This document shows, piece by piece, positions 57,346 to 60,235 of a DNA stretch of 64,000 nt. Below the pieces are notes generated by a model. It saw only the letters and a list, made by a program, of their open reading frames with translations. It had not been told where the DNA came from and did no database searches. How positions within the stretch are numbered: position 1 is the stretch's first letter; every line of letters begins with the position of its first letter. Origin of the DNA: a virus (taxonomy: Duplodnaviria; Caudoviricetes); the IMG/VR virus record IMGVR_UViG_3300047469_000103, positions 224,001 through 288,000 of that record, one strand, 5' to 3'. A program made the translations under genes and the position numbers.

Positions 57346-58152
57346 ATGATTAACGCTAGCGGAATCATCAAAGATATTCTGAACGGCAAGCTGACCTACA
57401 CCGAATTGCTGCGCGATGTATCCACTATGCAGCAGTTGAGTTCTAACGTTGTCGATTTCAATTTCATCGTGAATCAATTTCTCGCGATGGGTTGCCGTTT
57501 GATTCTCGACGGTGACAACGTTCAAGTAGTTCCTAACGATGCACGAATTCATCCATCACCACCGGACTTTATGCGCATTCGTCCAAGCGAAGCGCTGCCG
57601 CTCATTCGTAACGAACCGTTCGCCTTCTTGCCGAATTGGGATAAAGTTTACGCCCGTTTAGAAATCATGCTTCAAAGCAAAGGGCCGCAGCCGATGACAA
57701 CTGCGCCGTTTCGCGAAGTGTTGAGCATGAAATCCATTTTCAACAATTCGAATCGCGTTGTTCCATCGCAAATGGTTTGCTTCCCGGTAATCTGTTTGCT
57801 TGATGGTTCGATTAAGCTGATTCGCATGTCGCTGCACAATTTCTCGAAAACCCCTCGCGATGTTTTGAATGGTGCGCCTTGCATCATTCGCGGTAAATCT
57901 TCACGGAAGCAAATCGTGAAGCCAACCATTTTGATCGAAAACACATTCGATACGGTTGAGATTCTGGAACGCAACGCTGAAGCATTGGCGCAACTGGAAG
58001 CGGACTATAGCGTTTCGAACGTTGTAACCGTTGAACAGGCACAACTGCTGCGTAACCTGCTTGATAGCCGGAAACGAGACGCTACGGCCATTCAAAGCCG
58101 TATGGCGTCGATTCATTCAGTAAACGAAGGCAAAGGCGCTAACCGGGCTTGA
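57346..58152 (+). CDS. hypothetical protein
   Basis: 268 aa ORF. Confidence 0.75.
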   Translation: MINASGIIKDILNGKLTYTELLRDVSTMQQLSSNVVDFNFIVNQFLAMGCRLILDGDNVQVVPNDARIHPSPPDFMRIRPSEALPLIRNEPFAFLPNWDKVYARLEIMLQSKGPQPMTTAPFREVLSMKSIFNNSNRVVPSQMVCFPVICLLDGSIKLIRMSLHNFSKTPRDVLNGAPCIIRGKSSRKQIVKPTILIENTFDTVEILERNAEALAQLEADYSVSNVVTVEQAQLLRNLLDSRKRDATAIQSRMASIHSVNEGKGANRA

Positions 58153-58177
58153 CTGCCCTATGGCCCTTTGATACCGT
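58149..58177 (+). promoter_or_regulatory. sigma70-type promoter
   Basis: TTGACT (58149-58154), 17-bp spacer, TGn-TACCGT (58172-58177). Confidence 0.6.
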
Positions 58178-58191
58178 GGGTTGTCCGTAAC

Positions 58192-58410
58192 GTTTCGAGC
58201 CTTCAGCGTAACGCTCACGGATCAAGGGAAGTTTCAGACGATGCGCTTCTATATAGGGCGCACGCTTCGAACCTTGATTGATTGCAGCCGAAGCAATGAG
58301 CGTTACCGTTTCAATGCTTTCCGGCTCAAAGGAACGTTTGCCTTTATAGGGCGCCGTTCAAATGCCGCTTGTGTGTTTGGCGTTCCTTTGATAGATTGAA
58401 ACCTCGAAAC
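58192..58410 (+). ncRNA. candidate structured RNA (ncRNA or 5' leader), multi-branched
   Basis: Perfect nested helices 58192-99/58403-10, 58208-17/58297-306, 58221-27/58272-78, 58308-15/58395-402, 58326-36/58381-91; no known family recognised. Confidence 0.7.
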
Positions 58411-58465
58411 CCCTGCCTGAATGAAAAGGCACTCACACATTAAAGTAAGTTTGGAGAGAATCACC

Positions 58466-60235
58466 ATGACTAACTACGTCGGCAAAACCATCAACGTAAA
58501 CCACGGCGCTAAAAAAGGCGTCGTTAAAGAAACCGTCGTTAAGCAATTGAAGAACGGCACCATTCGTACTGGCGACGGAACAGAATTCCACGCTGACGAA
58601 ATCTACAACAAAGGCCGTGGCGTTTTTGTTGACGTGAAAGGCGGCGCTACTAAAAAGCCTGCTGCCGTCGCTGCTGACAATTCCCGCAAAGCTCCAACTG
58701 CAAAACCTGCTGCTGCGCCAGCGCCTGCCGCTCGTGTTGCATCTGCTGTAACCGCCGAAGAACTGGAAGGCGCGAAAGTAAACGGTTCCCGTGTTGAACG
58801 CGTTCTGAAAAAGGCCGGGAAAGTAAAACTGGAAGACGGCACCACCGTTGAACTGTCGAGCATCGTTCGTAAAGGTCGCGGTTATGTTTCCGATTCGGCA
58901 GTAATGCCAGAAGAAACCAAACCAGCCGGTAAAACCGCTGGCGCAAAACCTTCTGCAAAAGGCGGCGCGGTTCCAAAAGTGAAAGCGGCAACTTTCGACA
59001 GCGCCACCTTTGGCCCTGCTGGCGAATACACCACCAAAGACGTGCGCCATCAAATCGTCGATATCGACGGCGAAGAAAGCACCGTTGAAAAAGTATTCAC
59101 TTCCGGTCGTTGCGTAACTGACGACGGTTCTGAATTCAACGTCTCCGAAGTGCGTACCCGTCTCGACGGCACCTTCTGCGTTTACTCGGAAGAGTACATT
59201 GTGGAATTGCAAGAATTGTGGGAAGCGACTCAAGCGCCGAAAGCCGCAGCGCCGAAAGCCACCGCTGAAATCACCACAAAAGAAGTGAAGAACAAAAATA
59301 TCGCAGTGGGTGATGTTACTCACGTGATCGTAAAAACCTTTTCGAGCGGCAACGTTGAAACCGACCACGGTTTTAAATTCACCGTTAAAGATATCGCCCG
59401 CAAAGGTCGTGGCTATATCTACACCGGCGAAATGCCAACCAAAAAAGGCGGCGCACTTCCTAAAGCTCGCCCTGCACCAGAACCGCAATCGAAAGTTCTG
59501 AGCGTTTCCGCTTTCGACGGCGACACTGCAAAAGACGTTCGCGATTTGTTGAACGTTGCAGTTCGTAACGCAATCGTCACTGCTTACGATATCGACGTAG
59601 CTGGCGTGTTCGTTGCGTATGACGAAAACATGCTGACTTTCCAAGTTAGCTTCGCAGCAACCGACGCCGATTTGGACGTGGTTAAAGCTGCTGTAGAAAA
59701 ACAGCGCCATGAAAATTTCGCTGATTCCGAAGCCCGCGATTTCGAGCAACACGAACTGACCGACGCGCCAGTCGTAGAGCAAGAAGAGGAAGAGGAAGAA
59801 GAGGAAGAGGAAGAAGAAGAGCGCGAAGAAGAGGAAGAGGAAGAAGAAGAGGAAGAGGAAGAGCCAGAATTCGCCGTGCTGCAAAACGACGACGATTTCG
59901 ACGCAATGCCTACCAACGTTTCTTTCCCTGCTGACACTTCGAAAGACGTAGCCGGTGCCGATGGCCGTCTGAAACGTCTTTTCCCAACCAAAAGCCTCAC
60001 CGGTTACGCTGAAGCGTGGTACGAATCGCAAGCGGCATTTGACGCGGTTGAATACGATATCGAACCGGGCAACACTTTGACTGTCGAAGGTCAGGAATAT
60101 GTTTTGGTCGGCATTAAAGAACAGAAAATCGACGGCGTACTGCAAGCCGCTCCTTTCCTCGTTCACGCAACCAAAATGCAATTCCGCCCTGACGTAACTT
60201 TCGACATGCTGAAAGAATGGGTTGCTGCGCAGTAA
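58466..60235 (+). CDS. protein with four ~50-aa beta-rich repeats, K/A/P linkers and a poly-Glu tract
   Basis: GGAGAG SD before ATG 58466; three repeats end in KGRG(V/Y); Glu run of 25 residues with one Arg. Confidence 0.85.
   Translation: MTNYVGKTINVNHGAKKGVVKETVVKQLKNGTIRTGDGTEFHADEIYNKGRGVFVDVKGGATKKPAAVAADNSRKAPTAKPAAAPAPAARVASAVTAEELEGAKVNGSRVERVLKKAGKVKLEDGTTVELSSIVRKGRGYVSDSAVMPEETKPAGKTAGAKPSAKGGAVPKVKAATFDSATFGPAGEYTTKDVRHQIVDIDGEESTVEKVFTSGRCVTDDGSEFNVSEVRTRLDGTFCVYSEEYIVELQELWEATQAPKAAAPKATAEITTKEVKNKNIAVGDVTHVIVKTFSSGNVETDHGFKFTVKDIARKGRGYIYTGEMPTKKGGALPKARPAPEPQSKVLSVSAFDGDTAKDVRDLLNVAVRNAIVTAYDIDVAGVFVAYDENMLTFQVSFAATDADLDVVKAAVEKQRHENFADSEARDFEQHELTDAPVVEQEEEEEEEEEEEEEREEEEEEEEEEEEEPEFAVLQNDDDFDAMPTNVSFPADTSKDVAGADGRLKRLFPTKSLTGYAEAWYESQAAFDAVEYDIEPGNTLTVEGQEYVLVGIKEQKIDGVLQAAPFLVHATKMQFRPDVTFDMLKEWVAAQ

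Follow-up and report, generated by a model that had tools for sequence, protein, structure and literature searches.

Sequence comparison between a Lu11-like giant Pseudomonas phage and its relatives indicates that a folded leader RNA upstream of the gene for a 589-aa protein is genuine and evolutionarily maintained. The structured element (58192-58410, + strand) is made up of a closing helix, arm A (58208-58306) and arm B (58308-58402). It lies in a 313-nt gap between genes (58153-58465 of the window, by which we mean the whole 64-kb stretch of DNA that was analysed), and, judged by its parts and their spacing, this gap consists of the family's early start cassette (promoter, about 35 nt, leader box and ATG) twice in tandem. 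We propose that the gap is a control region whose RNA acts in cis, as a leader with a role in the processing or stability of the 589-aa gene's message or in the binding of a protein, a reading to which we assign a probability of about 0.5.

The gap and its tandem start cassettes

The gap is flanked by a 268-aa ORF (57346-58152) and the 589-aa ORF (58466-60235), all on the + strand. The stop codon of the upstream ORF falls within the -35 element of the promoter P1, and the 589-aa gene starts (58466) 56 nt past the 3′ end of the structured element. By the gene map, the + strand run covers only two genes and is then followed by an opposite-strand ORF. The only GenBank relatives were Pseudomonas phage HRDY3 (313 kb) and phage Lu11 (280 kb), and the order 5′-3′ exonuclease, ~190 aa, ~268 aa, gap and ~590 aa was constant in every locus from HRDY3, Lu11 and metagenomic contigs of 280-314 kb. 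Lu11 has this gap at 117248-117621 of JQ768459. From Lu11, HRDY3 and metagenomic relatives, about 20 distinct homologous gaps were gathered, and they represent at least five clades, namely W (the window and L038), L050/L061 (these two loci), L015 (this locus alone), M (L017-L027), H (HRDY3, listed as L001, with L039-41 and L059) and S (L045-47), in addition to the single-member lineages L060 and Lu11. A DNA-pattern scan of viral contigs for further homologs returned two chance matches only (L055 and L057), a second word-based protein search made no additions, and one metagenome scan added L052 alone. Despite a between-clade identity of only 30-50% in the flanking proteins, blocks of the gap were nearly invariant in the alignment. 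An origin of replication was considered, as the tandem promoters adjoin replication genes, but nothing was seen that pointed that way.

Promoter P1 (58149-58177, +) consists of the -35 element TTGACT (58149-54), a 17-nt spacer, TG (58169-70) and the -10 element TACCGT (58172-77), and its predicted start near 58184 is 8 nt ahead of the closing helix. Such a promoter (TTGACT-17-TGn-TACCGT, about 8 nt before the closing helix) had been claimed in a first-pass annotation of the window; it is present, and the arrangement TTGACN-17-(TGn)TAnnnT was kept in 21 of 21 homologous gaps while the spacer sequence varied. Only five TTG-N-TGnTAnnnT sites occur in the 64 kb, two of them in this gap. The 5′-terminal block CCGTAACG (58185-58192, +), at the predicted transcript start, was kept in nearly all clades of the alignment and is repeated at 58206-12 in the window's lineage. 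A strict consensus promoter scan listed neither P1 nor the second promoter-like element, P2. P1 was missed because its -10 matches the consensus at only three of six positions (T1, A2 and T6, with the TG also present). Both elements were thus accepted on conservation and not on the strict scan, and for P1 this conservation is taken as showing a host-type sigma70 promoter of the extended -10 class. For the related phage PaBG a gene for a phage sigma70-family factor has been reported, and the paper names no polymerase subunit genes beyond sigma factors (PMC7412058). No phage RNA polymerase was seen in the 64-kb window. Since phage sigma factors are reported and no phage polymerase was seen, Lu11-like giant phages appear to rely on the host RNA polymerase. 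The literature search turned up no report on HRDY3, and for phages of the Lu11 type it turned up no maps of transcription starts.

The leader box, CTCAC...AAGGGAAGTT, was defined by the pattern CTCAC-N5-8-A(A/G)G(G/A)AAGTT. HRDY3 has six matches to this pattern, and the 139-kb contig from which L038 comes (G001) has three. Five of the HRDY3 boxes and two of those in G001 stand ahead of other genes, usually 3-7 nt before the ATG, although a hairpin intervenes between box and ATG in one HRDY3 cassette. The distance from the TTGAC promoter was always 34-38 nt in both genomes. The window has the leader box twice, and both copies lie within this gap. Box 1 (58214-58233, +; CTCAC-N5-AAGGGAAGTT) is 36 nt past the -10 of P1 and is base-paired in arm A. 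No ATG of a conserved gene follows it at 3-7 nt. Because the same box stands before other ATGs, at the same distance from a TTGAC promoter, box 1 would copy a true start region. On this comparison, the early-gene leader box of the family recurs here as box 1 and forms much of arm A. Box 2 (58432-58468, +) runs from CTCAC (58432-36) to AAGTTTGGAG, with the Shine-Dalgarno sequence GGAG at 58453-56 and the ATG of the 589-aa gene at 58466. It is preceded by the hairpin TGCCT-N8-AGGCA (58414-58431, +), which lies between P2 and box 2, is part of the minimum-energy fold and carries a compensatory change in L038. This hairpin occupies the position of the start-of-message hairpin in other early cassettes.

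P2 (58369-58397, +) lies within arm B and consists of TTGTGT (58369-74), 17 nt, TGa and TAGATT (58392-97). The -35 element is TTGTGT in the window and TTGACG in clade M. The pattern TTGNNN-17/18-TGnTAG(A/T/C)TT was kept in W, L050/L061, L015, M, H and L059 with unrelated spacer sequences, always 34-35 nt upstream of box 2 (in clade H as counted by hand on the alignment), and the spacing of the half-sites was kept even in clades with a different RNA fold, such as clade M. In clade S, L060 and Lu11, P2 is degenerate. The fixed spacing together with the free spacer sequence across clades makes P2 promoter-like, and it is probably a second promoter in the leader; if it is active, the leader may be dispensable for expression. 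Thus, both P1 and P2 have a TTGAC-type -35, a spacer of 17-18 nt and a (TGn)TAnnnT -10, and each is followed by a box within the 34-38 nt range of the cassettes elsewhere (36 nt from P1 to box 1 and 34 nt from P2 to box 2). The short cassette recurs among early genes, whereas the large folded leader is present in a single copy per genome. Neither the copy of the early leader box in arm A nor the promoter-like cassette P2, carried by arm B and the 3′ strand of the closing helix, had been remarked on in the first-pass annotation.

Folding and conservation of the leader

All of the helices described in the first-pass annotation were located in the sequence. These are the closing helix P1 (58192-99/58403-10, +; called only the closing helix here, as P1 denotes the promoter), a 10-bp and a 7-bp helix in arm A (58208-17/58297-306 and 58221-27/58272-78, +), and an 8-bp helix and a perfect 11-bp helix in arm B (58308-15/58395-402 and 58326-36/58381-91, +). 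Perfect inverted repeats of 11 and 10 bp within 219 nt are not expected by chance. RNAfold gave -76.4 kcal/mol for the element compared to -61.7 +/- 4.1 kcal/mol in 200 dinucleotide shuffles (z = -3.57, with one shuffle equally good), and the fold reproduced the claimed architecture. In the window fold, the closing helix, the base of arm B and the 11-bp helix stack in line. The folding z was negative in all 16 leaders tested (mean about -2.4, range -0.75 to -4.84), and the leaders of clade S and Lu11 had the weakest excess over shuffles, with z from -0.75 to -1.4. A covariance model, R1, was built from the window, L038 and L050. It found one copy per genome and also retrieved homologs, with scores of 153 bits for L061, 41 bits for L015, 15-35 bits for clade M, 23 bits for clade H (L039) and 14-17 bits for clade S.

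Between the window and L038, the gap was identical at 298 of 313 positions (95.2%), compared to 712 of 810 (87.9%) in the upstream and 741 of 909 (81.5%) in the downstream coding DNA. At the level of sequence identity, this shows a gap under purifying selection and more conserved than the genes beside it. All helices are intact despite the 15 differences in the gap, which include two compensatory pairs of changes, namely 58341 C>T with 58351 G>A in hairpin T2 and 58416 C>T with 58429 G>A in hairpin 58414-31.

Across the wider set of homologs, which had been expected to show compensatory changes if the fold was real, pairing was indeed kept through compensatory and G-U changes, and these were found in the closing helix, in arm B and in the small hairpins. 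In the W-type alignment, 91% of the cells were paired. Two-sided changes were found in 22 of 70 pairs in this alignment (11.9 +/- 2.2 when shuffled, and 2-5 with the partner slid) and in 38 of 70 pairs in a 12-sequence alignment (19.8 +/- 2.6 when shuffled), but both alignments were fitted to the model and the counts are therefore inflated towards structure. The two-sided changes in the W-type alignment were concentrated in arm B, hairpin T1 and one position of the closing helix, where G-C is replaced by C-G in L050 and L061. In L015 the closing helix is retained only with a one-base bulge. The two main helices of arm A are invariant in the W type and are hence uninformative for or against the fold. 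An alignment-free test was anchored on the 16 nt just 5′ of a conserved UAG, for which the best complement was sought in the upstream 106 nt. It recovered the arm B helix with 11-13 bp in W (p = 0.002), 11 bp in L050/L061 (p about 0.02) and 9 bp in L015 (p = 0.05), and the helices in these three groups differ in sequence. The same ungapped test for arm B was not significant in clades M and H (p 0.08-0.9), where the helices are bulged or pair elsewhere. Consensus folds made from MAFFT alignments only had 51 pairs in clade M and 56 pairs in clade H, almost without breaks, and the pairs were upheld mostly through G-U/A-U/G-C changes.

The reverse strand of the window element folds equally well (z = -3.61), so the window alone does not give the strand. 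In paired cells, G-U outnumbered A-C in three sets (21:3, 49:2 and 48:3), and the consensus energy was better for the + strand in 3 of 3 sets. Together with the orientation of P1, these results point to an RNA made from the + strand. They also bear on a possible explanation at the level of DNA, by which the tandem promoters P1 and P2 and palindromic CCTATA(TA)GG-type operators would be under the control of a locus-specific regulator, and the RNA fold would be a by-product of palindromes and duplications. The equal folding of both strands of the window element would fit such a regulator, as would the conservation of P2 in the fashion of a promoter, with fixed spacing and free spacer sequence. 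CTATRGG-like motifs lie in the untranscribed spacer of P1, and upstream of P1 in clade M and L015, and an inverted repeat flanks the P1 -10 in clades S and H. However, the long-range helices are kept through G-U pairs (G-U:A-C 49:2 and 48:3), which are mismatches in DNA, and arm B in W, L050/L061 and L015 is an example of a helix that has compensatory changes without being a palindromic protein site. The consensus folds favour the + strand, and the motif is unused elsewhere in the genomes. We consider it unlikely that control at the DNA level explains the gap.

The overall architecture of the leader differed between lineages. The three-way junction that had been claimed is present in the window fold, but it did not hold for the family. 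In an unfitted alignment of the W and M clades, the closing helix was the sole common helix, and there it hardly varied; a single consensus structure for the two clades was rejected on this result. Clade M folds as one long hairpin in which the closing helix of 7 bp is followed by helices of 13, 5 and 12 bp. In the 5-bp part, the Shine-Dalgarno portion of box 1 pairs with CCCUU, and in the 12-bp part the partner of the segment past box 1 is the -35 and spacer of P2. Closure in clade H uses another 3′ segment. The leaders of clade S, L060 and Lu11 are shortened forms without arm B. Since these lineages fold otherwise or are reduced, the three-way junction with twin tips is, as far as comparison of the homologs goes, a property of the window's wider lineage (W, L050/L061 and L015) and not of the family.

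Internal repeats and the role of the leader

Twin near-identical 13-mers had also been claimed, and they were found at 58249-61 and 58342-54 with 12 of 13 positions identical. No further site in the 64 kb matched with two mismatches or fewer. The first is held by hairpin T1 (58242-58262, +; TGCGC.../...GCGCA), whose loop motif TATATAG is present in all clades and whose stem has two-sided changes in 5 of 11 pairs of the W-type alignment. The second 13-mer (58342-54) belongs to hairpin T2 (58340-58352, +), within a diverged copy of box 1 and T1 at about 58322-58366. At the second 13-mer, L038 has TCTGTATAGAC, and the hairpin is kept by a change from C-G to U-A. By sequence comparison, the twin 13-mers stem from an internal duplication, the 5′ half of arm B being a diverged box 1 and T1. 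A genome-wide or conserved motif was rejected, as the window has just these two sites, few occur in HRDY3 and G001, and the second copy is lost in L038. The earlier proposal of two protein-binding sites was not supported, because the second 13-mer is unconserved in L038 and the twin is accounted for by the duplication.

A 52-codon ATG ORF (58241-58399, +) lies behind box 1 with both 13-mers in frame. It was judged to be no gene, as start codon, frame and length are not conserved: its homologs have no start in L050, L061, L015 and L017-20, span 5-24 codons in clade H and run from TTG to TAG in clade S. Neither a conserved short ORF nor a terminator, such as an attenuator or an upstream-ORF mechanism would involve, was found in the gap. 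The segment from box 1 to P2 could also be the decaying trace of a former small early gene, or could still encode the 52-aa peptide. Box 1 has all the parts of a start region and the usual spacing from P1, an ATG in the window 7 nt past box 1 opens the 52 codons with both 13-mers in frame, and Lu11 has a small annotated CDS within the gap. However, one-base indels occur between close relatives in addition to the unconserved start, frame and length, the DNA is more conserved than the neighbour genes, unlike a decaying remnant, and the Lu11 CDS overlaps P1 and does not follow box 1. Taken together, we find a remnant or a peptide scarcely credible.

No terminator-like hairpin with a T run is present in 58153-58465, which agreed with the earlier statement that no terminator precedes the 589-aa gene. 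The first-pass annotation had left the choice between a non-coding RNA and a regulatory leader. With no terminator and a conserved gene directly downstream, starting 56 nt on, the leader part of this claim stood and a terminated stand-alone RNA did not. A release of the ~220-nt element, which would then act in trans as a stable non-coding RNA, e.g. a decoy showing the leader box and UAUAG-loop hairpins, is nevertheless conceivable. The two ends of the element are brought together by the closing helix, and a box that elsewhere occurs at early start sites only has a copy in it. The element is single-copy per genome, and conservation of the gap is very high. On the other hand, the gap has neither a terminator nor a recognisable 3′-end signal, the second 13-mer is not conserved in L038, box 1 is mostly paired instead of displayed, and the architecture varies among clades. 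For these reasons a trans-acting RNA is in our view improbable. Decidedly less probable still is a leader-box decoy RNA that titrates a host or phage factor (such as a translational repressor, a ribosome-associated factor or the sigma70 holoenzyme) acting on all early boxes. It is just as doubtful that box 1, the degenerate second copy in arm B and the P2 sequence in paired form make up the contents of such a decoy. If the decoy were true, a giant phage apparently without a polymerase of its own would use it to time the switch from early to middle expression.

The reading that we prefer is a folded leader acting in cis. In this model, the host sigma70 RNA polymerase would fire P1 early in infection. 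The first cassette (P1 and box 1) would start no gene, and the transcript would run about 280 nt into the 589-aa gene. The nascent leader would fold compactly, with arm A burying box 1 and the 5′ end of the RNA pairing with the sequence of P2 and its message start (arm B and the closing helix). The folded leader would then set the amount of 589-aa protein made from P1 transcripts. Its likeliest role in cis would be that of a processing or stability module, or of a site for a locus-specific protein such as the 589-aa product itself. A processing or stability role is favoured because the near-continuous long helices resemble RNase III-type substrates. P2 would be a second, weaker start, giving messages without the folded leader. 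A clean switch, with box 1 hidden and box 2 open, was rejected because the difference in unpaired probability was only modest. The mean unpaired probability of CTCAC was 0.29 in box 1 compared to 0.64 in box 2, and the unpaired probability of the true ribosome site, box 2, was 0.47 compared to 0.39 for box 1. Thus, the predicted fold would neither plainly sequester nor plainly expose the true ribosome site.

Relation to known systems and the downstream protein

The two cassettes of the gap, P1 with box 1 and P2 with a hairpin and box 2, have the same parts and distances as the early cassettes elsewhere in Lu11-like phages. They differ from these in that two stand here in tandem, the first starting no conserved ORF, and in that the box is buried in a conserved fold of ~220 nt which also covers the second promoter, whereas the cassettes elsewhere have one small hairpin only. 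The PeSL cassettes of T4-type phages consist of a sigma70-like early promoter and a stem-loop and are scattered among early genes, and the stem-loops are effective terminators (Arbiol et al. 2010, PMC2839356). The likeness lies in small repeated regulatory cassettes with a strong early promoter and a stem-loop. In contrast, the stem-loop is a terminator there and no terminator-like hairpin occurs in this gap, and the PeSLs are short and have no known large conserved leader fold. By analogy, a tandem or 'empty' cassette could have arisen by recombination between cassettes of this kind.

The search of Rfam 15, which includes 6S, riboswitches and large RNAs of the GOLLD/ROOL/HEARO type, gave no match in the window at gathering score. 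At E<=10, the region 58000-58600 had three chance-level matches of 13-16 bits, compared to thresholds of 36-71 bits. A tRNA and tmRNA search found none, and the earlier view that the element matches no known family was upheld by these searches. Phage early leaders processed by RNase III include the early R sites of T7 and the N leader of lambda. As in these, long irregular near-continuous helices are present in the untranslated early leader of clade M and of the window, and the near-continuous helix of at least about 20 bp that marks such substrates was found in the clade M hairpin and in the stacked helices of the window. There is no sequence relation to these leaders, and the copy of a start site and the promoter-like element inside the leader are a further difference.

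The put RNAs of HK022 are cis-acting, ~70 nt long and serve the read-through of downstream terminators, and 6S RNA, a binding partner of the sigma70 holoenzyme, is a long hairpin with a central bubble. The leader could likewise act on RNA polymerase, either as a put- or EAR-like antitermination RNA or as a 6S-like mimic with a duplex promoter sequence. As in put, two adjacent stem-loops lie directly behind an early promoter, and the long irregular hairpin of clade M has the P2 promoter sequence as one strand. However, the element here is ~220 nt long and its two-arm form is lineage-specific, there is no terminator from P1 to the gene, and the + strand run has only two genes before the opposite-strand ORF. 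Clade M does form a long irregular hairpin, but the window forms a three-way junction without a match to the Rfam 6S model, and neither 6S nor any other Rfam model was credible at E<=10. Size and architecture are clade-dependent. An RNA directed at the polymerase is therefore very improbable. In Rfam and in the literature, we found no described counterpart of a large conserved fold that combines two tandem cassettes and includes a start-site copy and a promoter-like element.

The downstream gene (58466-60235, +) encodes a 589-aa protein of a family restricted to these phages, with 13 detectable relatives among 1.8 billion representatives and no match in Pfam, PHROG or Atlas. A single-sequence fold was poor. 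The AlphaFold model (AF2, 15-sequence alignment) showed four small barrels at residues 8-56, 108-142, 197-239 and 278-319 with pLDDT 85-92, and in the remainder an alpha/beta domain, a poly-Glu tract and a confident C-terminal domain. In this model the four barrels look SH3/Tudor/PRC-barrel-like. Fold searches with the whole protein returned weak Tudor, PRC-barrel, KOW, RimM-C and CarD-N-like rows at noise level (Z<=6.1). Folds of the Tudor, PRC-barrel, KOW, RimM-C and CarD-like kinds often bind RNA, ribosomes or RNA polymerase. If the leader controls, or is bound by, a Tudor/SH3-repeat protein, this would be the first handle on both the RNA and the protein.

On the strength of the sequence comparison, the leader is a solid candidate for a new RNA family with about 20 members in at least five clades. 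Its layout is unusual, in that one conserved early gene has a leader into which a copy of a start site and a probable second promoter are folded. As Lu11 can be cultured on Pseudomonas putida, the leader family is directly testable.

Conservation and alternative pairing of the leader

The non-coding gap that encodes the folded leader RNA (window 58153-58465, + strand) was 95.2% identical to L038 1189-1500, its counterpart in the nearest relative, in a pairwise comparison of the two phages, whereas the coding DNA beside the gap was 87.9% identical upstream and 81.5% downstream. The closing helix of the leader can be extended in the window to 14 nt (58192-58205/58397-58410, 86% complementary), and the extended form competes with the base helix of arm B. 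This extension, which is weaker in L038 than in the window, parallels the clade M fold.

Neighboring genes and related cassettes

The gene downstream of the gap (58466-60235, + strand) encodes a 589-aa protein of a family confined to these Lu11-like phages. Its predicted structure begins with four SH3/Tudor-like barrels connected by Lys/Ala/Pro-rich linkers. Behind the barrels come an alpha/beta domain, about 35 consecutive Glu residues and a C-terminal domain predicted with confidence. In Lu11 itself, a small CDS, Lu11_0153A, is annotated in the homologous gap (L037 2757-2963, corresponding to JQ768459 117256-117462); it lies upstream of and across P1, the leader promoter, and is probably not a real gene. 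The 'promoter' feature in the same record is a single 172-kb span.

An early cassette of HRDY3 (282093 onward; L032 near 1500-1570) carries the leader box, the motif of early-gene start regions, followed immediately by its own complement. The resulting predicted hairpin, AAGGGAAGTT-TAGG-ACTTCCCTT, masks the ribosome site; downstream of it lies another Shine-Dalgarno sequence with an ATG.

Repeats around P1 and promoter frequency

In L046 and L047 of clade S and in L001 (HRDY3) of clade H, the -10 element of P1 (the promoter at 58149-77 in the window) lies between the two arms of an inverted repeat, AAGGCC(C) and (G)GGCCTT. This repeat could be an operator; the window counterpart, GGCCC...GGGTT, is weak. 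Clade M carries a palindrome, GGCCTATAGGGCC or AGCCTATATAGGCT, after the upstream stop codon. L015, with a gap of 469 nt, has at 2032-2170, upstream of P1, four tandem copies of the unit CTATAGGGGC-N-TTTGA, which is similar to the P1 spacer plus extended -10.

Sigma70-like extended -10 promoters were very rare, with five pattern matches in the whole 64-kb window, two of which were located in the gap. This scarcity is consistent with a replication-gene region under phage-specific promoters.
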